Below are positions 3,347 through 46,782 of a stretch of DNA of 53,813 nucleotides, in pieces (position 1 is the stretch's first letter; each line of letters starts with the position of its first letter). The notes beneath the pieces were generated by a model that saw only the letters and a list, made by a program, of their open reading frames with translations, did no database searches and was not told the origin of the DNA. This DNA is from a virus. Its lineage: Duplodnaviria; Caudoviricetes. A program made the position numbers and the translations under genes. The stretch spans positions 1 to 53,813 of the IMG/VR virus record IMGVR_UViG_3300020109_000024; one strand, given 5' to 3'.

Positions 3347-3649
3347 GTGTAACCGGCCACGGTCGGTTATACGCCATGTGCCCTTGGCAAGTATCTCTGC
3401 GAGGCCTTCGCAGAATATATTGCCGGGGGTGTCCTTATGGGAAACTTGGTTCCTGACCTGCTGCTCCCATAATTCTTCATTCGCACGTGTCAAAGATTGC
3501 GCAAGATCATCATCCGACAGCTTGAGATGTTCGGTGATCTTGTGCTTGATAGTTGGAACATCTGATGTTCCATCAGGCTCATAATATAGAACTTGTAGGA
3601 CAGCCAAGCCAACTTCGGCCTCTGTCACGCGATTATGCTTCGAAGGCAC
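3323..3649 (-). CDS. Stand-alone winged-helix protein, Mrr N-terminal-like
   Basis: LSDDDLAQS...WEQQVRN...GTWRITDRGR pattern; GGAGG RBS before GTG 3649; converges on the MTase. Confidence 0.6.
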   Translation of the reverse strand: MPSKHNRVTEAEVGLAVLQVLYYEPDGTSDVPTIKHKITEHLKLSDDDLAQSLTRANEELWEQQVRNQVSHKDTPGNIFCEGLAEILAKGTWRITDRGRLHLKNKRLV

Positions 3650-4792: not shown

Positions 4793-4934
4793 TATGCGCG
4801 CGCACCTTTTCAGCCGCCGCTTGTCTCCCCTTCGGGGTTGCGTGTGCGAGCCGCGGCGGGGACGGACAGCCCTCTACCTGGGCGGATCCGCTTCCCTGCG
4901 ATGGAGGCTTGTGCCTCGGCGGCAGGGTGCATGA

Positions 4935-5011
<77 letters not shown>

Positions 5012-5031
5012 TTTCACCATGAGGTCGATCG

Positions 5032-5358
5032 ATGGGCCTGCCTGACATCTTCGGCTTCAAGCGTCGCGCAGAGGAGCGGCGGCGCCGCGAGGAACAGGAG
5101 TGCCGCCTGCGTCGCGCTCGCCTCCTCGGCACCTCTGGCTCGCCTCGGTCGGCCTCGTCCCGGTCGGCATGGGACGACAGCCCGATGAACCCGGCGTCGC
5201 CCTCGGGCATGGTGCTGAGCCCTCTCAGTCCGATCTCGCCCAGCAATGGCGGGTCGGACTACTCGTCCTTCGAGAGCTGCACCCCCTTGTCGTCCTACTC
5301 GGACAGCGGGTCGTCCTGCTCCGGTGGGGACAGCGGCGGCGGGGGCGGTGGGGACTGA
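5032..5358 (+). CDS. Hypothetical protein with Ser/Gly/Asp-rich C-terminus
   Basis: GAGG RBS, 108-aa ORF between tRNA and terminase. Confidence 0.55.
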   Translation: MGLPDIFGFKRRAEERRRREEQECRLRRARLLGTSGSPRSASSRSAWDDSPMNPASPSGMVLSPLSPISPSNGGSDYSSFESCTPLSSYSDSGSSCSGGDSGGGGGGD

Positions 5359-34957: not shown

Positions 34958-35121
34958 CGGCCGGCCCGGCGATCGAGCGCACACGGCCCTACATCGGGGA
35001 TTGGTGGCGGACTGGGGCGTTGCCGTTCGGCGGGGCAGCGCCGGGATGATGCGGCATCCGATTGAACCGGGCCGAGAGGCGCAGGTTGTTGCTTGAGGGA
35101 GGCCCCTCACGATGTCAGCGC

Positions 35122-35298
35122 ATGCTCCAGAAACCCTTAAGCCCTGACGTCGAGCGACTGAAAGCCACCATTGCGGAAACCCGGCATCTTGCGGCTTCGA
35201 CCTACCAACAGGTGGCCCGGAGTCGGCAACTGATCCGAGAGGCATACGCGCTCCTCGCTTCGACGGATCATGCGACGAGCAAGGAGCGATCTAGTTAG
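35122..35298 (+). CDS. Small hypothetical protein
   Basis: Short helical ORF; start uncertain. Confidence 0.35.
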   Translation: MLQKPLSPDVERLKATIAETRHLAASTYQQVARSRQLIREAYALLASTDHATSKERSS

Positions 35299-35351
35299 TG
35301 CTCGCGCTTCGCGAACCGCCGAGCGACCGTCCGTATCTCCGCTCATCACCC

Positions 35352-35384
35352 AGCCCCGCCCGGCCCAGCCGCGGCGGGGCTTTT
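35352..35384 (+). terminator. Rho-independent terminator ending the late operon
   Basis: AGCCCCGCC...GGCGGGGCT followed by TTT. Confidence 0.75.
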
Positions 35385-35418
35385 CGTGCGCCTTCCACAA
35401 GGCAAGCCGGTGGTATCA

Positions 35419-35466
35419 TTGACGAGTGAACCTGTATGGGTTAACTAACGAACCATATCAGGTTCA
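35419..35466 (+). promoter_or_regulatory. Promoter with two palindromic operators for the XRE-IrrE operon
   Basis: TTGACG at 35419; TGAACC-N6-GGTTAA (35427-35444) and CGAACC-N6-GGTTCA (35449-35466). Confidence 0.7.
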
Positions 35467-35489
35467 AGCTCGGAGACGAGGATGACGCC

Positions 35490-35852
35490 ATGCTCACGCC
35501 GTTTGGAAAATCACTGAGGAAGCTGAGGCTCGACCGCGGGTTGCTCCTCAAAGATATGGCCGACTTGCTCGACGTTTCCCCGTCGTTCCTGTCGGCTGTG
35601 GAGGCCGGACGCAAGGCTATACCCGCTCGAATTATCGACGAAATCGGGCATGGCTACAGCCTTAACTCCGCGGAAATAGACGATCTGCGACGTGCAGCTC
35701 TCGCATCTACCAAGGAAATGACTATTCGCTTCAACGGAAGCTCGACAGACGCTGATAGGGAAGCAGCTGCGCTTCTTGCGCGCACCTTCGAAAACGGTGT
35801 GTCTGATGACTTCCTTGCAGGTCTGAAAGACCTTCTTGATAGGAAACGATGA
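35490..35852 (+). CDS. XRE-family HTH regulator
   Basis: FGKSLRKLR...LKDMADLLDVSPSFLSAVEAGRK. Confidence 0.92.
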   Translation: MLTPFGKSLRKLRLDRGLLLKDMADLLDVSPSFLSAVEAGRKAIPARIIDEIGHGYSLNSAEIDDLRRAALASTKEMTIRFNGSSTDADREAAALLARTFENGVSDDFLAGLKDLLDRKR

Positions 35853-36397
35853 TGAGTGACGTTCGACTAGAGGCGGCTCCGCGTTCCAAAGCTGAGATCG
35901 CCGCAATCGGTTGGAAAATCCGTGAACAGTTCCACCTGACGGAGCCATTCCTGCCTGTGGCCGCCCTAGTCGAGGTAATTCTGCCTCGCGCTCTCGGAGA
36001 CCGGTTCATTTTCACAGTCAAGGATAAGTACGAGATGGGTAATCGGCACGGATGCGTCGATCCCAGTACCGGTGAATTGAGTCTTCGAGAGGATGTTTAT
36101 GACGGCTTATGTCGTGGCGTAGGGCGCGATCGTTTCACAGCATGCCATGAGTTGGGGCATTGGATGCTGCACCGAGGATCGACGCTCAACCGTGTCGGCC
36201 GCGAGAAGCACATCCCAGCCTACCGAGATCCGGAATGGCAGGCCAATGAGTTTTCAGCCTCGATCTTGATGCCGCGGCCGCTCATTTCGAGGTACAGAAG
36301 TGCTCGCGAGATAGCGCAGGACTTCGGAGTTTCTTTGGACGCTGCTGATTACCGAGTGCGAAAGCTCGGTTTGCACCAGCAGGGCCAAGGCAGCTGA
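35849..36397 (+). CDS. ImmA/IrrE family Zn metallopeptidase
   Basis: RDRFTACHELGH (HExxH) and EWQANEFSASILMP; ATGA overlap with XRE. Confidence 0.92.
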   Translation: MMSDVRLEAAPRSKAEIAAIGWKIREQFHLTEPFLPVAALVEVILPRALGDRFIFTVKDKYEMGNRHGCVDPSTGELSLREDVYDGLCRGVGRDRFTACHELGHWMLHRGSTLNRVGREKHIPAYRDPEWQANEFSASILMPRPLISRYRSAREIAQDFGVSLDAADYRVRKLGLHQQGQGS

Positions 36398-36551
36398 GGC
36401 CAATCGGTTTAGCGATCAGCCTCAGCCGTTCTGCGCTGGCACGCGCGAGCGGAGGTCCACCCGCGAAAGCCGTCTCTGGTGTAAGCAACCGGGATGTAGC
36501 CTCCAGCGGCAACGGACACAAGACCCAAGTGCCGGATTGGAGGTGTGTCAT

Positions 36552-36692
36552 GTGCGACGATTAGGGACTTCTGTACCCCCTCCGGGATTTCGCTGGGTAT
36601 TTTGCCGCTTCCGCCGCGTGAAGAACTCAACCCGGGTTCTTGACGCTTGGGAGTATGGCTACGAGGCCTGGGCTTTCCTGGTCCGAGCGTAA
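36552..36692 (+). CDS. Unannotated 46-aa protein MRRLGTSVPPPGFRWVFCRFRRVKNSTRVLDAWEYGYEAWAFLVRA
   Basis: GGAGGT RBS 7 nt before GTG; basic/aromatic protein-like composition; below the ORF-track cutoff. Confidence 0.7.
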   Translation: MRRLGTSVPPPGFRWVFCRFRRVKNSTRVLDAWEYGYEAWAFLVRA

Positions 36693-37428
36693 AATTCGAG
36701 GAGTCCAATTCTTTCGCATTGGCTCCACTCGTTCGGTCTAAGTCTGAGGGCGACCGCGGCACGCTTTTGCCCTTAGGCACTGTGGAGAAACTCTATCTCA
36801 GCTTTGATGCGAGGGACGGACATGACGGCTGCAAAGTTGGGCCCTGAAAGGACTGGCAACCACAAGCGCTAAAAGCGCCCACGCACAAGCTACATACATC
36901 CGCAGCTTAGGCTTGGCATTCCTATCTGCGATGTATCTGGCGGGAGCCAAGGGGTATCTCTAGCCAGAGGTAGCGCGCGTTTTAGCTCGGACCTCACATC
37001 AACTGATAGGAGTGGGGTCCGGTAAGCCGATTATATTCCGGGGCCGCGAGCATCCGCTTCCGCACCTCGGCCATGCGGTCGTCATCGCGAGCGCCGAGGC
37101 TGATAGATGACGCGCTCGGCGATCAGTTGGATGTTTTTCAGGTGGCAGCGGCTGGTGGGCATTGCTGCCCGTTCGCATGGTCGAGGCGGCTGCCTATGAC
37201 ATCGGGCCAGCGACGGGGGATCTCGCTCCACACCGTCCCATAGTTTAGCTGCGTGAGTTGCAATATGCCGCCGACTTGGCAGGTTCCGTTGGCTTAGTCG
37301 CCTTGGATCGAAATGCGTTGCTGTCGGGCGGCGCAGACGATCTACCCCGTGTCAAAACTAATCGCCGTGTCCAACACTGACTGATTTTCGCATCTTGATC
37401 CCCCCAACAGACTGGAGGGTACTTCAAG

Positions 37429-38388
37429 ATGATGCCTCGCAATCCAATTGAAGCCGATTGGCTCATTCGTTCTGCCGAAGAAGAGGCCGCGCGCGCCGAG
37501 CGCTGGGCTGCCGTAGCGCAGCAGCAGATGGCATACCAAGCTGCCATGGCGAAGGCGCACGCCGCCGACGCTGCCGGGCTCCGGGCCCTTTGGACCTTCG
37601 GGTCACTGCCCACCCCTGGATCGGTCGATCAGCCGAATCGGCCCGAGGTGGCGGTGGCCATCGAGGTGCCTGCACCCGAGCCGGTCGAGCCACCCAGATG
37701 CCGGTTCTGCGGGAAGCCGACACGGATCTGGCAGGGGAAGCCGCAAAGGTTCTGCACGTTCTCAAAAATAGCCTCTGGCTATTCGTGCTCCCATCGGTGG
37801 CGCGATCAACGCAACACGGAGCTCAGGAGGAAGGCGAAGGCGGAGGCGCAGAGGGAGAGGGCAGAGATCTTGGCAGTCGATCTGCCGGATATCGCCTGCA
37901 CCGAGGTCGCGTCGATCACATCGGAGGCTCCAACGTGCCGGCAATGCGGCAAGCCCACACGCATCTGGAGAGGCAGGCCTCAGAAGTTCTGCTCGCCACC
38001 CGCCGGCCGCACGACCTCTCCCTGCGCGTCGGCATTCCATTGCCGGGCTCAGCGGGGGCGGTCCACGCGGAGCCCGGCACAACGCGCGCGTCGGGCGAAC
38101 AAGCAGCCCGAACCGGTTCGCCCGACCGGATCGGTTCTGGCGACGGCCTCTCCACGGGCAGAGGGGCATGACCTCCTGGCGACGGTGACGCGCGCAGTCT
38201 CGGCGAGCCTGCCCGACGAACTGCGATCGGAGATCATCAGCGAGACGGTCGTGCTCATGCTTGAGGGGGCGAAGCTCGCGGATGCCATAGCCGAAGCCTC
38301 GAAAAGCGTCCGTAGGAACGCCGCACCGCTCCGCTACACCAAATCGATCGACGACTGCTTTTGGCTGGCGGAGGAGCCGTCGGACTGA
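37429..38388 (+). CDS. Tandem zinc-finger protein, paralog A
   Basis: Two CxxCGKPTR-x9-C...C units; C-terminal 85 aa shared with 44248-45516; GGAGG RBS. Confidence 0.8.
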   Translation: MMPRNPIEADWLIRSAEEEAARAERWAAVAQQQMAYQAAMAKAHAADAAGLRALWTFGSLPTPGSVDQPNRPEVAVAIEVPAPEPVEPPRCRFCGKPTRIWQGKPQRFCTFSKIASGYSCSHRWRDQRNTELRRKAKAEAQRERAEILAVDLPDIACTEVASITSEAPTCRQCGKPTRIWRGRPQKFCSPPAGRTTSPCASAFHCRAQRGRSTRSPAQRARRANKQPEPVRPTGSVLATASPRAEGHDLLATVTRAVSASLPDELRSEIISETVVLMLEGAKLADAIAEASKSVRRNAAPLRYTKSIDDCFWLAEEPSD

Positions 38389-38907: not shown

Positions 38908-39564
38908 TCAGAACTCGCCGGCATCGGGGTCGTACTCCCGCTCGTGGTGGCCGAAGGCAGCGGTCAAATTGTCAGAGACTGTATGCGCGCAACAGATCGC
39001 GCAGGTCGGCGGGTACGCTGCCGCGGAAAGCACGTCGTAAGCAGCTAGGAGAGAGCCGCCCGTCGTAATGACATCGTCTACCAGGATGACAGCCCTCGAT
39101 CTCGGCCGAGAGATTAGGACCATACCCTCTGCCAGTGCTGTCCGGTCGCGCGTGCCACCAGCTGCAGCTCGTTCCATCTCCTTGCTGAAGCGCAGGATGC
39201 ACTCAACGTTGGCTTCGAGGTCCGACCCGGCCATCGCCTCTCTGACCATTTCAGCAGAACGGTAGGTTTCCGCCCTGACGAGACCATCTTTCGAGGGGAC
39301 GGGGATAATCGAAGGATCTTCGATACCGAGATGGGAGATTCGGCCCCTCACGAAAGACCCGAAAATTTCCCTGGCACGATGAACGTTTTTTGTATCGATC
39401 TCTTCGTGCGGCTTGTTCTTCCACGGAACAGTCATATAGCCGTTAATCAAGCCGCTCTTTACTGCGCGAGTGAACTTGAACGCATCCCATTGCTTCTGCG
39501 TGCGCGGAGCAAGGTTTTTATGCGCATACTGGGAATAGTAAGCGCACATGAAGTGAACGTTCAT
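38908..39564 (-). CDS. Phosphoribosyltransferase (ShosT/ComFC-like)
   Basis: IIPVPS and PRPP-binding VILVDDVITTGGSL; ATG overlaps the DprA stop (ATGA). Confidence 0.85.
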   Translation of the reverse strand: MNVHFMCAYYSQYAHKNLAPRTQKQWDAFKFTRAVKSGLINGYMTVPWKNKPHEEIDTKNVHRAREIFGSFVRGRISHLGIEDPSIIPVPSKDGLVRAETYRSAEMVREAMAGSDLEANVECILRFSKEMERAAAGGTRDRTALAEGMVLISRPRSRAVILVDDVITTGGSLLAAYDVLSAAAYPPTCAICCAHTVSDNLTAAFGHHEREYDPDAGEF

Positions 39565-40280
39565 GGGGAGCTTTTGATCGCGTCCAGCAGGTCTGCGGTC
39601 GACGTGAGAATGCGGACATTCTTGTCGCCTAGAAAGCGATTGGGCCACGTTAGGGTTGTGTCGTCAACCACTGATCGCATGATGAAGAGCCAGCGCTTCA
39701 GCCGCCCACACTCCGCCGCTTGATGCAGCGTGCCGGACGTGTCCGAAGCCTCCACGATCACCGTCGCATCCGAGATGGCAGCCATGACACGATTCCGCTT
39801 GGGGAAATTGCTGCGGAAAGTGCGCTCCCCGATCTCGAAAGGTGTCAGGAGAAGGTGGTTGCGCCAGACGGTCTCCTGAAGCTCAGAGTTCTCGGCGGGG
39901 TACGCCTTATCGAGAGGAGTCCCGATAATGCCGACCACGGAGCCATCGTGATCGATCGCGGACGTGATCGCCGCCGTATCGACGCCCTTGGCGAGACCAC
40001 TAACTACGGTCACACCAGCGGCAGCGAGTTCACGCGAAAGGCGAGCGGCACGCTTCCAGCCGGCGTCTGAAACGTCCCGGGTTCCCACGATCGACACGCA
40101 TGGGCGCTTCAGCAGATCGAGGCTGCCGGCATAGTAGACGGATGCGGAACCGGACCCATCGCCTGTTCGCAGGAGATCCATCTGCTTCGCAGCGAGCGGG
40201 GCGCGGCCGATCTCCGCCAGCAAGTCTGCCAGCCCTATAGAAGAAGGTGCGCTGGGCGCTTGGTAGCGCCGACGCGTCAT
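39561..40280 (-). CDS. DprA/Smf-like protein (ShosA-like)
   Basis: VSIVGTR, VVSGLAKGVD, FPKRNRVM, VEASDTSGTL. Confidence 0.9.
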   Translation of the reverse strand: MTRRRYQAPSAPSSIGLADLLAEIGRAPLAAKQMDLLRTGDGSGSASVYYAGSLDLLKRPCVSIVGTRDVSDAGWKRAARLSRELAAAGVTVVSGLAKGVDTAAITSAIDHDGSVVGIIGTPLDKAYPAENSELQETVWRNHLLLTPFEIGERTFRSNFPKRNRVMAAISDATVIVEASDTSGTLHQAAECGRLKRWLFIMRSVVDDTTLTWPNRFLGDKNVRILTSTADLLDAIKSSP

Positions 40281-40455
40281 CTCCCTCATTGTCGGCTCAG
40301 CGATGCTCATACAGCCAAGTTGCGCGCTCAAGCTTAACCATCCCCTAAGCTCCGCCGCCACCCGACAACCTAGTTAACAACGCGTCAGCTGTCGCGCCTT
40401 TCCCGGTATCAGAAAGCTGTTGATCCCCAACGGGTTCCAACGTTAAGCGGCCGAT

Positions 40456-40634: not shown

Positions 40635-40841
40635 TTTCGACAGCGACGAAAACTTCTTGTAGAACAACGGAGGCAAATCAAACGATTTGTCGAAATATGC
40701 TCTGATCCGGCTCAATTTTGGGGAGACTCTTAATCAGCGGGTCCTAGGTTCGAACCCTAGTGCGCCCACCAAACTTCCCAAGCACTTAGCCGATACTTGG
40801 GTCGCCGTTTCGACACGGCGTCAGCGGCTCATTTCGACAAA
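40635..40841. repeat. Putative integrase arm-type sites TTTCGACA around attP
   Basis: Copies at 40635, 40808, 40832 (+) and 40688 (-). Confidence 0.65.
40725..40771 (+). mobile_element. attP core = 3' half of tRNA-Lys(CTT)
   Basis: GACT-CTT-AATC anticodon region, CTAGG-TTCGAAC-CCTAG T-arm, ending CCACCA; no 5' half; adjacent to the integrase 3' end. Confidence 0.9.
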
Positions 40842-42037
40842 CCCTCCCGCTTCGTTCTCGCCTCCAGCCGCTTGCGCGCACCCTCGCGCCGCTGCGCGGC
40901 CGTCGTCTGAGCGTAGCGGAGCAGTGCGGCCGTGGTCAGGTGACCGCTGAGCGCGCGGAGCTGCGCGTCGGTCAGGCCGGCCTCGGCGCCCTCGACGTTG
41001 CCTCCGTGGCGTAGGCCCATGAACTTCACCTCCGCGTCGATCCCGGCCGCCTCGCGGATCTCCGCGACCTGATGCCGGAAGTAGTCCGGCTGCCACGGCA
41101 GGTGCACCTTGCGGCGGCGGTCGAGCTGGTCGCGCGTGACGATCAGCGTCCCGCGCCGCGGCAGCGCATCAAGGCGCTCCGTCATTTCCGGCCAGAGCGA
41201 CGTGCCGTCCGTGTCGAACAGCGGTACCTCGACCAGTTCTCCGGTCTTGTGGTGGAACACGCGCACGATTCCCGGCGCGTCCGCTGGCCGGTAGTGCGTC
41301 CAGGCCAACCGGGTCAGGATGTCCTCCTGCCGCTGCAGCCAGAAGAACGCGATCATCGCGGCCGTACCGATCGACCCCTCCCCGGCTTTGTCGGCGGCGG
41401 CGACGAAGCGGACGAGTTCGGCGTGCGTCACCGGCCGCGTCGCCTTCGCCTTGTACGCGAGGCCCATCTTGGCGAACGGGTTGTCGAGCGGGATCTCGCG
41501 CGGCCGATCGCGGCGGGCGACGTTCCACGCTCGCTTGCAGACCGTCATCGCTAGGATGGCGGTGCGCACCCGTGCCGTGCCGTCGGCCTTGGTCTTGAGC
41601 CGGTCGTAGAGCCGATCGGCGACGCCGGGCTGGATGCTGGCGAGCGCGAGCGATCCGAAACGCCGACCGTCCTTCATCTTGTAGTCGGCCACGAGGGCGA
41701 GCGCCGAATCGTAGCTCTTGCGAGTGCGGGGCGGCCGGTCCGTGAATTTGGGCGAGGACCGGTAGATGCCGGTAAGCCAATCGAACGTGCCGACCTTCGC
41801 CGCCGCCTCTACAATGGGCGCGGTCGAGCGCGTGCGCCACGCATCGAACTGCGGGTTAAGGATCTCGTCGCAGCGCCGCTTGGCCTCGCCGTAGTCGCCG
41901 CCGAGCGATTCGAACGTGAGCGGGCACCCCCTCTTGGTCGCCCAGGTGGGCGGACCCCAATAGTAGGCGGTGGCGCCGGTCTTCAGGCGGCGGGCCACCA
42001 TCAGCTTGGGCCAGCCGACTGGCTTCGTGCGCGGCAT
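40829..42037 (-). CDS. int: Tyrosine integrase
   Basis: QRQEDI (R), HKTG (K), MGLRH, LSGH, RY catalytic pattern; next to attP. Confidence 0.9.
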   Translation of the reverse strand: MPRTKPVGWPKLMVARRLKTGATAYYWGPPTWATKRGCPLTFESLGGDYGEAKRRCDEILNPQFDAWRTRSTAPIVEAAAKVGTFDWLTGIYRSSPKFTDRPPRTRKSYDSALALVADYKMKDGRRFGSLALASIQPGVADRLYDRLKTKADGTARVRTAILAMTVCKRAWNVARRDRPREIPLDNPFAKMGLAYKAKATRPVTHAELVRFVAAADKAGEGSIGTAAMIAFFWLQRQEDILTRLAWTHYRPADAPGIVRVFHHKTGELVEVPLFDTDGTSLWPEMTERLDALPRRGTLIVTRDQLDRRRKVHLPWQPDYFRHQVAEIREAAGIDAEVKFMGLRHGGNVEGAEAGLTDAQLRALSGHLTTAALLRYAQTTAAQRREGARKRLEARTKREGLSK

Positions 42038-46095: not shown

Positions 46096-46782
46096 TTATC
46101 GGAAATTCTTCGCGACGATGCGGTGGCGTATAGGCCAAATCTCGCGCGACAACTGAAAATCTTGAGGCGGATTGAACTGCCTCACAAGCCACTCTTGTTC
46201 GTTTTGACCGATGTACCGCTTGACGGTTGCCAGCGTCTCCGCGCCTTCCTCGGCGCCGTAGAACACGCATGTGGTATTTGCAAGAACCGGCAGTCGCGGA
46301 TTAACAAACAGAAGGTCTCCCGGCTCAAACTCGGGGACCATAGACTCGCCGATTAAATAAATAGCATATCCGTCTTTTACGCCCTGAAGAAGTGGCGGTC
46401 TTTTCACACTTCCAATTGCATCTTGTTCGATAATGAGTGCACCGCGCCCGCCCTCGGCGGACGCATACAGGGGAACATCGCCTACTAGTCCTGCTGCACC
46501 TGCCCAATAGGCAGGATCGCGGGCGTATTCCGGCACCGGCGTACTCGCGCCACGGTGCACCAGTGCAGTTGGTATGCGTGAGCGACCGAACGCCTCTTCC
46601 GGCATTGATGCCGGATCGAGACCGAGCGCCGCGCACAGCTTGTCGAGAACTTCGGTCGAGTGGCTGTGTTTGCTCTCGATCTTGCCGATCGTGGCTTGAG
46701 ACACGCCGACGAGCTGACCTAGGGCCTTCTGCCCCAAGCCCTTTGCAATGCGCGCTTCCCGTATGCGGTCCTGCCAGTCCAT
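46096..46782 (-). CDS. cI: CI-like repressor (HTH + S24 autopeptidase)
   Basis: HTH QKALGQLVGVSQATIGKIE; GESMVPEF (Ser) and TVKR (Lys). Confidence 0.92.
   Translation of the reverse strand: MDWQDRIREARIAKGLGQKALGQLVGVSQATIGKIESKHSHSTEVLDKLCAALGLDPASMPEEAFGRSRIPTALVHRGASTPVPEYARDPAYWAGAAGLVGDVPLYASAEGGRGALIIEQDAIGSVKRPPLLQGVKDGYAIYLIGESMVPEFEPGDLLFVNPRLPVLANTTCVFYGAEEGAETLATVKRYIGQNEQEWLVRQFNPPQDFQLSREIWPIRHRIVAKNFR

Follow-up and report, generated by a model that had tools for sequence, protein, structure and literature searches.

A conserved cassette joining a predicted XRE/M78 protease-repressor switch to a leader RNA and a gene for a 46-residue protein

The virus record IMGVR_UViG_3300020109_000024 (referred to here as the window, i.e., the whole 53.8-kb stretch of DNA that was analysed, with a GC content of about 69%) carries at 35419-36692 a compact cassette of three genes on one strand, encoding an XRE-family repressor, an M78 zinc metallopeptidase and a protein of 46 residues that is set apart from the peptidase gene by a structured spacer. 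Taken as a whole, the evidence makes it highly probable that this is a conserved cassette in which a real, translationally gated small gene lies under the control of an XRE/M78 switch. Its left edge is an intrinsic terminator read from the sequence (35353-35384, plus strand), where the lysis/late operon ends in a GC-rich hairpin and a T-run; a simple terminator scanner missed it because its loop is longer than 8 nt. Across 35001-37000 the GC content is 0.59/0.57, compared with 0.675-0.695 in the three preceding 1-kb segments. An earlier note on this DNA had described a self-contained, AT-richer operon beyond the late terminator, with twin AACC-N6-GGTT operators over the promoter, coupled XRE and HExxH genes, and a 46-codon open reading frame (ORF) with a GGAGGT ribosome-binding site (RBS); all of these features were found in place, at the positions given below.

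The cassette opens with a promoter-operator region (35419-35464, plus strand) that comprises a candidate -35 box assigned by eye (TTGACG, 35419-35424) and two AACC-N6-GGTT palindromes (35429-35442 and 35451-35464), the centres of which are 22 bp apart. The promoter itself is putative, and a simple scan for sigma-70 consensus promoters called none. The palindrome occurs at four sites in the window against 0.35 expected, a count that none of 100 shuffles reaches, and it lies upstream of 9 of 83 distinct related XRE genes, compared with 11 of 4150 shuffles and 2 of 480 control segments. This recurrence supports the assignment of AACC-N6-GGTT as the likely operator of the XRE family; twin identical palindromes upstream of related XRE genes were found by a strict search in the window only (1 of 82). 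The putative repressor (120 aa, 35490-35852, plus strand) is a CapH/ImmR/DdrO-like helix-turn-helix (HTH) protein (HTH_31, E 6.5e-8; HTH_3, E 8e-7), matches the PADLOC capH profile over residues 2-117 (E 3e-7), and has at its C-terminus a FAR motif that is conserved in the family alignment. Two related loci are notable for what lies ahead of the XRE gene. At one (L140), approximately eight tandem copies of a 9-nt unit (CTAACACGA), located about 100 nt upstream of the gene, directly precede its start in the place of the palindromic operator found elsewhere. At the other (L024), the XRE gene is preceded, at a distance of about 0.3 kb, by a C4 antisense RNA (3513-3599, minus strand; Rfam RF01695, 80.9 bits).

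The XRE coding sequence overlaps by 4 nt (ATGA) with that of a short stand-alone M78 (ImmA/IrrE-type) zinc metallopeptidase of 182 aa (35849-36397, plus strand; Peptidase_M78, PF06114, E 1.5e-12). The HExxH motif (HELGH) occupies residues 100-104, and H100, E101, H104, E129 and Q131 are invariant across 48 aligned M78 sequences. The best PADLOC match is capP (E 1.2e-18); matches of the RmrA profile are weaker (E 1.3e-9 or worse) and limited to the peptidase core. When the family profile was compared with PDB sequences, CapP and IrrE were the closest solved relatives, and the match to CapP (7t5t, E 8e-14) covers residues 82-184 of 291, i.e., the peptidase part only. Pfam finds M78 alone in the window protein, with no GAF domain. 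The comparison with ImmA/IrrE drawn in the earlier note is thus sound as regards the zinc peptidase but does not extend to the GAF domain of IrrE and CapP; lacking this domain, the protein is ImmA-like in size.

The third gene (36552-36692, plus strand) starts with GTG at 36552, ends with a stop codon at 36690-36692 and is preceded by an RBS, GGAGGT, at 36539-36544; an alternative TTG start at 36537 would yield 51 aa. The encoded protein has an isoelectric point (pI) of 11.2, 20% aromatic residues, 9 K/R versus 3 D/E, and a grand average of hydropathy (GRAVY) of -0.28. That the ORF is a hidden gene, as the earlier note supposed from this single locus, is borne out by its conservation. A word-indexed protein search returned 25 homologues of 45-58 aa with 62-86% identity, and in the alignment of 26 members a variable N-terminus precedes a core of about 40 residues, 15 of them invariant. 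HMMER, run over 1.84 billion representatives, yielded 102 clusters (50% identity), nearly all shorter than 100 aa (the longest is 169 aa), and in nearly all of them the match ends at or a few residues from the C-terminus. A search for longer, fused forms gave four proteins of 112-379 aa, probably with miscalled starts, and no informative fusion. Mean pairwise identity at the three codon positions of 80 distinct core sequences, from genomes of 37-69% GC, is 0.76, 0.81 and 0.38, and this third-position wobble is a protein-coding signature.

Given that the spacer is a strongly conserved structured RNA, it might be argued that the ORF is a chance open frame and that only the RNA matters. This explanation is refuted by the codon-position pattern, and its probability is practically nil; the 15 invariant residues, the wide GC range, a stop codon followed by a hairpin in most loci inspected, and a confident fold prediction also speak against it. 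The AlphaFold2 model, made with the family alignment, has four beta strands and a short helix, with a mean predicted local distance difference test (pLDDT) value of 87.9. No counterpart with a name was found for it: Pfam, NCBIfam (chance-level matches only) and PADLOC gave no match, a family-profile search of PDB sequences returned nothing under E 0.5, the best Foldseek match in the PDB had an E value of 1.4, a wide VIA-align search of 48,161 chains gave no Z of 2 or more, and the ESM Atlas returned unnamed small-protein clusters (0.92, 0.89, 0.88) and no named one. It should be noted that these null fold searches do not make the fold new. The protein is a member of phrog_33859 (E 9e-17; residues 7-51 on profile positions 4-55 of 57), as are all 26 of the 26 aligned members, but this family is listed with unknown function, and its name adds nothing to the assignment; no named defence or toxin-antitoxin system matches the small protein. 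Among phage records, tblastn with the small protein found one unannotated Escherichia phage record, blastn with the whole cassette found no match in 50,697 records, and megablast with the Escherichia sp. copy found no match in complete E. coli genomes.

The surroundings of the small gene have features of their own. An out-of-frame ATG at 36550, just before the in-frame start, opens a four-codon frame in the window. Of 130 distinct contexts in relatives, 72 likewise have an out-of-frame ATG at a distance of 7-11 nt from GAGG, the frames being mostly very short (five codons or fewer in 28 of the 72); a role as decoy start or start-stop element is conceivable. Beyond the stop codon, two hairpins read from the sequence (36700-36726 and 36744-36777, plus strand) likely mark the 3' end of the small-gene transcript; in the relatives inspected by eye, there is mostly a hairpin, often with a T-run, shortly past the stop. 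A complex prediction with XRE, M78 and the small protein scored 0.00, i.e., it gave no answer, and was used neither for nor against binding.

The stretch between the M78 gene and the ORF had been recognized earlier as a structured spacer of about 155 nt. Its length (154 nt) and its structure hold, but comparison with relatives changes its standing: it is a conserved leader RNA, predicted to be riboregulatory, that travels with the ORF. In relatives, the leader consists of hp1, P2, P3, an A-rich linker and P4, in this order. The first element, hp1, is a terminator-like hairpin in the 5' part of the leader, the loop of which reads GSGSCAAC or its reverse complement; this motif was found in 34 of 81 distinct M78-to-ORF intergenic regions, compared with 28 of 4050 shuffles. 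P2 is a hairpin with a purine-rich loop resembling a Shine-Dalgarno (SD) sequence, P3 is a long-range stem on CUUG...CAAG, closed around a hairpin whose loop is UAGCA-like, and P4 consists of an anti-SD paired with the invariant GGAGGU. The presence of the hp1 loop motif in either orientation is odd for an RNA signal and may reflect recognition as DNA. An attC/integron cassette was rejected as an explanation for hp1, the loop motif, as judged by eye, departing from the integron core-site consensus.

A covariance model (R1), built from 12 sequences with the nested leader structure, gave 40 hits in 100 sources and 34 in 64 (74 of 164 in total), one per locus and always immediately upstream of the ORF; elsewhere in the 1.4 Mb searched, there was no hit. 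In the R1 alignment, 76.7% of cells are paired versus 59.7% after shuffling (0 of 500) and 43-54% after sliding, and the covariation score is 0.422 versus 0.153 and 0.08-0.13, respectively. Compensatory changes occur at seven of seven P2 pairs and four of six P3 pairs, and variation in P4 is confined to the 5' side, as would be expected because the SD must remain GGAGG. RNAalifold on plain MAFFT alignments (A2, A5), in which the helices were misaligned, found no pairs, and it was replaced by a hand-given structure, the covariance model and alignment-free permutations. These permutations, with 36 distinct leaders, were done because the R1 alignment had been fitted to the model. P3 flanks pair better with each other than with those of other sequences (2.94 vs. 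2.23 of 6), and the P2 loop pairs more strongly with its own anti-SD/P4 loop than with those of others (-12.7 vs. -9.2 kcal/mol); in both cases, 0 of 5000 permutations reached the value. The pairing of the P2 loop and the formation of P4 use the same nucleotides and are therefore mutually exclusive, so that the P2 loop can act as an anti-anti-SD. By its design, the leader would thus be a two-state translational switch.

A second leader class was found at 22 loci (19 distinct), with a conserved stem GGAAUGG...CCCAC...GUGGAUUC enclosing a hairpin that by eye appears to covary; 16 of these 22 loci carry phrog_2602, a protein family considered below. No family in Rfam 15 matches either class, with only chance-level hits at E values up to 10, and at the gathering threshold, the window and 10 related loci gave only a tRNA and an unrelated C4 RNA. 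A sigma-70 promoter within the spacer, at the conserved CTTG/TAGC positions, was considered and rejected, given that these positions pair or covary as RNA and that the -10 box would lack its final T; an internal promoter may still lie ahead of hp1.

In the window itself, the minimum free energy fold places hp1 as a terminator-like or attenuating hairpin directly past the M78 stop (36393-36426, plus strand); its loop is a variant of the GSGSCAAC motif, and an equivalent hairpin is found in relatives. The leader is assigned to 36398-36551 (plus strand) from its fold and motif-level likeness to relatives. It contains an SD mimic, GGAGG, in a hairpin loop (36451-36455, plus strand), a small hairpin with a GUAAGCA loop (36476-36492, plus strand), and an anti-SD, CCUCCA (36500-36505, plus strand), that pairs with the SD UGGAGG (36538-36543) in an extended hairpin. 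The region 36385-36560 has a folding energy of -76.7 kcal/mol (z = -2.97), which is equalled by 1 of 200 shuffles. As duplexes, the mimic and the anti-SD reach -15.5 kcal/mol, and the anti-SD and the SD -20.4 kcal/mol. One metatranscriptome run contains a single 404-nt contig that, with one mismatch, covers exactly 36384-36787; it spans hp1, the leader, the ORF and both 3' hairpins, and it includes none of XRE or M78. This is a weak hint of a discrete transcript. The RNA evidence consists of unstranded contigs, and the parts that are not covered carry no weight. A relative of 90-95% identity is carried by run X15, which is RNA only by guess.

The linkage of the three genes was examined at 161 loci, i.e., the window and 160 loci retained from degenerate-pattern scans, which had returned 108 viral and 128 genomic loci, 80 of each being kept. 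The order XRE, M78, small gene on one strand was found at 107 of the 161, with the small-gene start 113-243 nt past the M78 stop (typically 140-160 nt). Around the 86 distinct M78 sequences, which share 27-44% identity with the window M78 and over which order, strand and spacing to M78 are kept, the only common neighbours are XRE (84 of 86) and M78; the remaining flanks vary and include integrases, S24 repressors and others. Since the flanks beyond the three genes vary, the unit is a mobile cassette of prophages, plasmids and chromosomes. The small-protein core retains 60-85% identity across Alpha-, Beta- and Gammaproteobacteria, Synergistota, Nitrospirota, Planctomycetota and others. The distribution is patchy, comprising prophages, plasmids of 4-190 kb and the chromosomes of several phyla; 36 PLSDB plasmid records carry the cassette (Acinetobacter, Alteromonas, Klebsiella, Legionella, Escherichia and Edwardsiella). 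The small gene, sometimes missed by record annotators, is therefore the conserved core of a widespread module. On the 4.0-kb ColE1-type plasmid NZ_CP065845.1, and there alone, the layout is divergent: the XRE-ImmA pair faces away from a two-gene operon that encodes a phrog_3202 protein followed by the small protein (unannotated), and twin palindromes lie in the control region between them. This is an independent arrangement that still couples the switch to the small gene. A PADLOC scan of five cassette-linked proteins found no known defence proteins among them. On an Acinetobacter plasmid (L164, NZ_CP027245.2, 1-2705), genes for a ThiF-family E1-like protein, a hypothetical protein and a DUF6685 protein precede the XRE-ImmA-small cassette, a set that recalls the ubiquitin-like operons reported beside CapH/CapP-like regulators.

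The tripartite unit proposed in the earlier note, the ORF being linked to an XRE-protease pair in the same order and strand, is thus the arrangement at 107 loci, but it is not the only one, since at the other 54 the leader and ORF follow different genes. The test by which the earlier note could have been refuted, namely whether the ORF is conserved and linked to such pairs, went in its favour. At 28 of the 54, the gene directly upstream on the same strand encodes a protein of about 190 aa resembling phrog_2602, a family of unknown function. In its model (pLDDT 77), an N-terminal four-helix domain is joined by a disordered linker to a C-terminal beta-hairpin and helix. The best structural match of the N-domain is 3nrw (Z 8.3, root-mean-square deviation 2.7, 88 residues aligned); IntI, XerA, XerD and lambda Int, together with the integrase-derived repressors MrpR and SroF, are also among the matches listed, most of the top ones being integrase N-domains. 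With Z values in the middle range, the N-domain probably has the tyrosine-recombinase core-binding (SAM-like) fold, so that the second partner is also predicted to bind DNA; the domain layout is antitoxin-like. At the other 26 loci, the small gene stands behind a family of about 260 aa or further assorted genes, among which AAA ATPase-like, HNH-like and DUF262-like proteins were noted by eye from sequence motifs. At four Competibacteraceae loci (L092, L093, L095 and L109, at approximately 4800-5260), a class II ribonucleotide reductase is split into nrdJa and nrdJb, with the hairpin, leader and ORF in between, and in Capsulimonas (L084) they stand just after an intact nrdJ and a 266-aa partner. 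Because partners differ from locus to locus, the constant unit is the hairpin, the leader, the ORF and mostly a terminator-like 3' hairpin.

Such variety raises the question of whether the leader and ORF are an autonomous selfish mini-cassette, the company of XRE-M78 being co-inheritance on a mobile module. The unit does stand behind at least six unrelated kinds of gene, including inside the split nrdJ, and the two orientations of the hp1 loop motif hint at DNA-level recognition. However, no recombinase, target duplication or terminal repeats were seen, the arrangement kept over the 86 distinct M78 sequences points to long co-evolution, and the divergent plasmid operon again adjoins XRE-ImmA. 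We therefore consider this explanation very unlikely.

It is more reasonable to regard the whole as a mobile cargo cassette whose small protein is the doubly gated output of a protease/repressor switch; this is the best single explanation, and in our judgement, the chances of its being correct in full are evenly balanced. By analogy with related switches, XRE would bind the twin operators and repress its own promoter, and the translationally coupled M78 would cleave XRE upon a stress signal, which by the same analogy may be DNA damage or phage infection. Transcription would then pass the attenuating hairpin into the leader RNA of about 150 nt, which would lock the strong RBS of the small gene in the anti-SD:SD hairpin until the upstream SD-mimic loop, by competing for the anti-SD, opened it; this ON/OFF logic is suggested by the design of the RNA. 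The basic, aromatic-rich beta protein would accordingly be an output gated at both transcription and translation, and the guarded design, with flanking hairpins, a sequestered SD and an out-of-frame ATG, argues for the proposed cargo cassette.

What the output does is less certain. Its basic and aromatic composition suggests nucleic-acid binding, and upstream partners that bind DNA or are predicted to do so, mobility and costly silencing suggest a growth-arresting or defence effector. On this design, the protein would most likely bind nucleic acid and either arrest growth or block phage, and the cassette would be a three-component module of the toxin-antitoxin (TA) or defence kind in which the DNA-binding partner serves as neutraliser or regulator. 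A toxic or defence role for the small protein is nevertheless tentative, and we place it somewhat below an even chance.

The same observations can be read in favour of a regulator rather than a killer, i.e., a mini-protein with affinity for RNA or DNA that would exert feedback on the cassette, for example through its own leader or as co- or anti-repressor of the upstream partner, or that would tune a host process such as translation while leaving growth unarrested. The upstream partner is always DNA-binding or predicted to be so (XRE, or the phrog_2602 protein with its integrase-like N-domain), the small protein is basic and aromatic, the conserved leader could be its own binding site, and its place after a CI-type repressor at L074 and L075 suggests expression in the lysogen. 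However, core identity of 60-85% over distant phyla suggests a universal target rather than a locus-specific partner, the partner proteins are mutually unrelated, and such heavy translational locking would be unusual for a harmless regulator. This makes a regulatory role unlikely, albeit one to be taken seriously.

A related idea, corresponding to the ligand or activator option of the earlier note, is that the small protein modulates DNA-damage sensing by binding single-stranded DNA (ssDNA), RecA filaments or the protease, and thereby tunes repressor cleavage. The XRE/M78 pair is of the CapH/CapP kind, and CapP is reported to be ssDNA-stimulated. Moreover, S24 repressors recur as neighbours, umuD/umuC-like genes, assigned by eye from N-terminal sequence, lie nearby at L143 and L158, the class II ribonucleotide reductase is found at L084, L092, L093, L095 and L109, and an aromatic, arginine-rich beta protein would be a plausible ssDNA binder. 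Nonetheless, 54 of the 161 loci have no protease, the neighbour theme is anecdotal, and a protein required for activating the switch could hardly be encoded downstream of it, with its own SD locked, without circularity. A role in damage sensing thus appears quite improbable.

A bolder version of the cargo-cassette explanation is also conceivable, in which the leader would be a translational switch of a new, pseudoknot-type kind, responsive to a second and independent signal, and the 46-aa protein would represent a new class of nucleic-acid-binding abortive-infection toxin. The cassette would then be a 'two-key' suicide module, with repressor cleavage as the transcription key and the RNA as the translation key, spread on prophages and plasmids over Proteobacteria and several other phyla; the second signal might be a metabolite or nucleotide alarm, temperature, the state of the ribosome or the peptide itself. 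We regard this version as speculative and rather improbable.

Several points weigh against the cargo-cassette explanation, or at least against parts of it. A toxic effect, binding to nucleic acid and XRE cleavage by M78 are all proposals. The M78 has no GAF domain, the presumed sensing domain of IrrE and CapP, and the trigger is therefore not transferable from them by analogy. The existence of the 54 loci with other partners means that the small gene does not need the XRE/M78 switch, and at two loci (L074 and L075) the small gene and its phrog_2602-like partner stand behind a CI-type HTH-S24 repressor, a position usually expressed in the lysogen and not on induction. The small protein is neither hydrophobic like type I toxins nor akin to a known toxin fold, and a leader of about 150 nt with a hairpin between 'antitoxin' and 'toxin' is atypical of type II TA operons. 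As for the RNA, the model shaped the alignment of R1 hits (A7), phylogeny is disregarded in the permutation controls, and the window leader is a divergent variant that scores only 6.8 bits with R1, so that its structure rests on its own fold and on motif-level similarity. Finally, the 404-nt contig may be DNA carry-over, and a contig is no proof of transcript ends, strand or RNA origin.

Comparison with characterized systems shows that the switch is of a known kind, the small-protein family, although catalogued, is unstudied, and Rfam does not contain the leader RNA. The hallmarks of a protease/repressor switch are present, namely an XRE HTH protein and an M78 zinc peptidase with HExxH and a downstream Glu, encoded by adjacent genes on the same strand. 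The closest layout is that of ImmR/ImmA (ICEBs1 and phi105, Bacillus subtilis), in which an XRE repressor is likewise followed by a short, GAF-less M78/COG2856 peptidase on a mobile element. According to published descriptions, ImmR is autoregulated through operators at its own promoter and is the master repressor of the element, controlling a large divergent operon for excision and transfer. In contrast, the window phage has a separate CI-type repressor, and the sole consistently linked target here is the 46-aa gene, downstream on the same strand and behind a structured leader. CapH/CapP of CBASS and DdrO/IrrE of Deinococcus provide the best matches by profile and structure sequence and, by analogy, may share the logic of a protease that cleaves a repressor. 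However, CapP and IrrE have about 290-300 aa with a C-terminal GAF domain, whereas the window M78 has only the peptidase part, and the CapH/CapP and DdrO/IrrE pairs regulate multi-gene immune or repair operons that are usually divergent, whereas the target in the window is downstream on the same strand.

Type I TA systems (hok/sok and tisB/istR type) have hydrophobic membrane-peptide toxins that are neutralised by antisense RNA. The cassette resembles them in its tiny ORF, in an SD sequestered in a long structured leader with alternative pairings, and in its flanking terminators, but the small protein is basic and soluble-looking, with a predicted beta sheet, and no antisense RNA was seen, although no search was aimed at one. 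With type II and three-component TA systems, it shares a compact operon, mobile DNA and a patchy distribution. Three-component TA systems built on COG2856-Xre were predicted by Makarova et al. 2009 (PMC2701414), and PD-lambda-2 (Vassallo et al. 2022) is an experimentally supported defence system. These systems also combine a peptidase, an XRE element and a small, toxin-like third gene on mobile DNA. However, their third gene encodes a toxin of the RelE, PIN or HigB kind and their peptidase usually forms a single protein with the HTH, whereas the cassette has an unrelated 46-aa third protein set apart by a riboregulatory leader, and its XRE and M78 are separate genes, unlike the peptidase-HTH fusion of Rosmer (RmrA)/PD-lambda-2. 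Titles and the opening lines of abstracts in the literature gave no account of the small protein or the leader; supplements on CapH/CapP and PD systems may list such loci.

Switches of the ImmA/IrrE/CapP kind are known for large operons, and here one is tied consistently to just one 46-aa gene. Should the peptide serve as an effector of defence or addiction, it would be among the smallest protein effectors under such control, and if it is toxic, it would be a new third component for the predicted COG2856-Xre TA systems. With three genes in about 1.3 kb, the cassette also offers a compact model of combined transcriptional and RNA-level locks on a dangerous product.

By its gene content, the window phage reads as a lambda-like siphovirus or prophage. 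A Prim-Pol/DUF3987 replication protein (1-2529) and a tRNA-Met (4935-5011) are followed by genes for the large terminase, portal, tape measure, a 2464-aa tail-fibre J-like protein and endolysin. The cassette is placed between the lysis genes and a tyrosine integrase (40829-42037, minus strand), an interval that is the usual site of accessory cargo. Elsewhere, the phage encodes a separate CI-type repressor (canonical HTH plus S24, 46096-46782); the XRE of the cassette is therefore not the master immunity repressor, and the cassette is cargo.

Some further observations concern the flanks. In two runs, contigs of related genomes match 35354-35386 alone and diverge on both sides, with loose ends; this hairpin, seen in other sequence contexts, may be a repeated terminator or an element resembling repetitive extragenic palindromes. 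An ORF of 319 aa (37429-38388, plus strand), 736 nt 3' of the small gene, contains a repeated zinc-ribbon-like segment in two copies (Cys-x2-Cys, 'CGKPTRIW'), matches no family above threshold and is not kept beside the cassette in other loci. Further on, within 38908-40361 on the minus strand, a gene for a phosphoribosyltransferase-like protein of 246 aa (a weak Pribosyltran match, under the Pfam cutoff) overlaps with one for a DprA/SLOG-like protein of 266 aa (DNA_processg_A, E 4.9e-50; LDcluster4). This pair adjoins the integrase and resembles another accessory or conflict-system pair.

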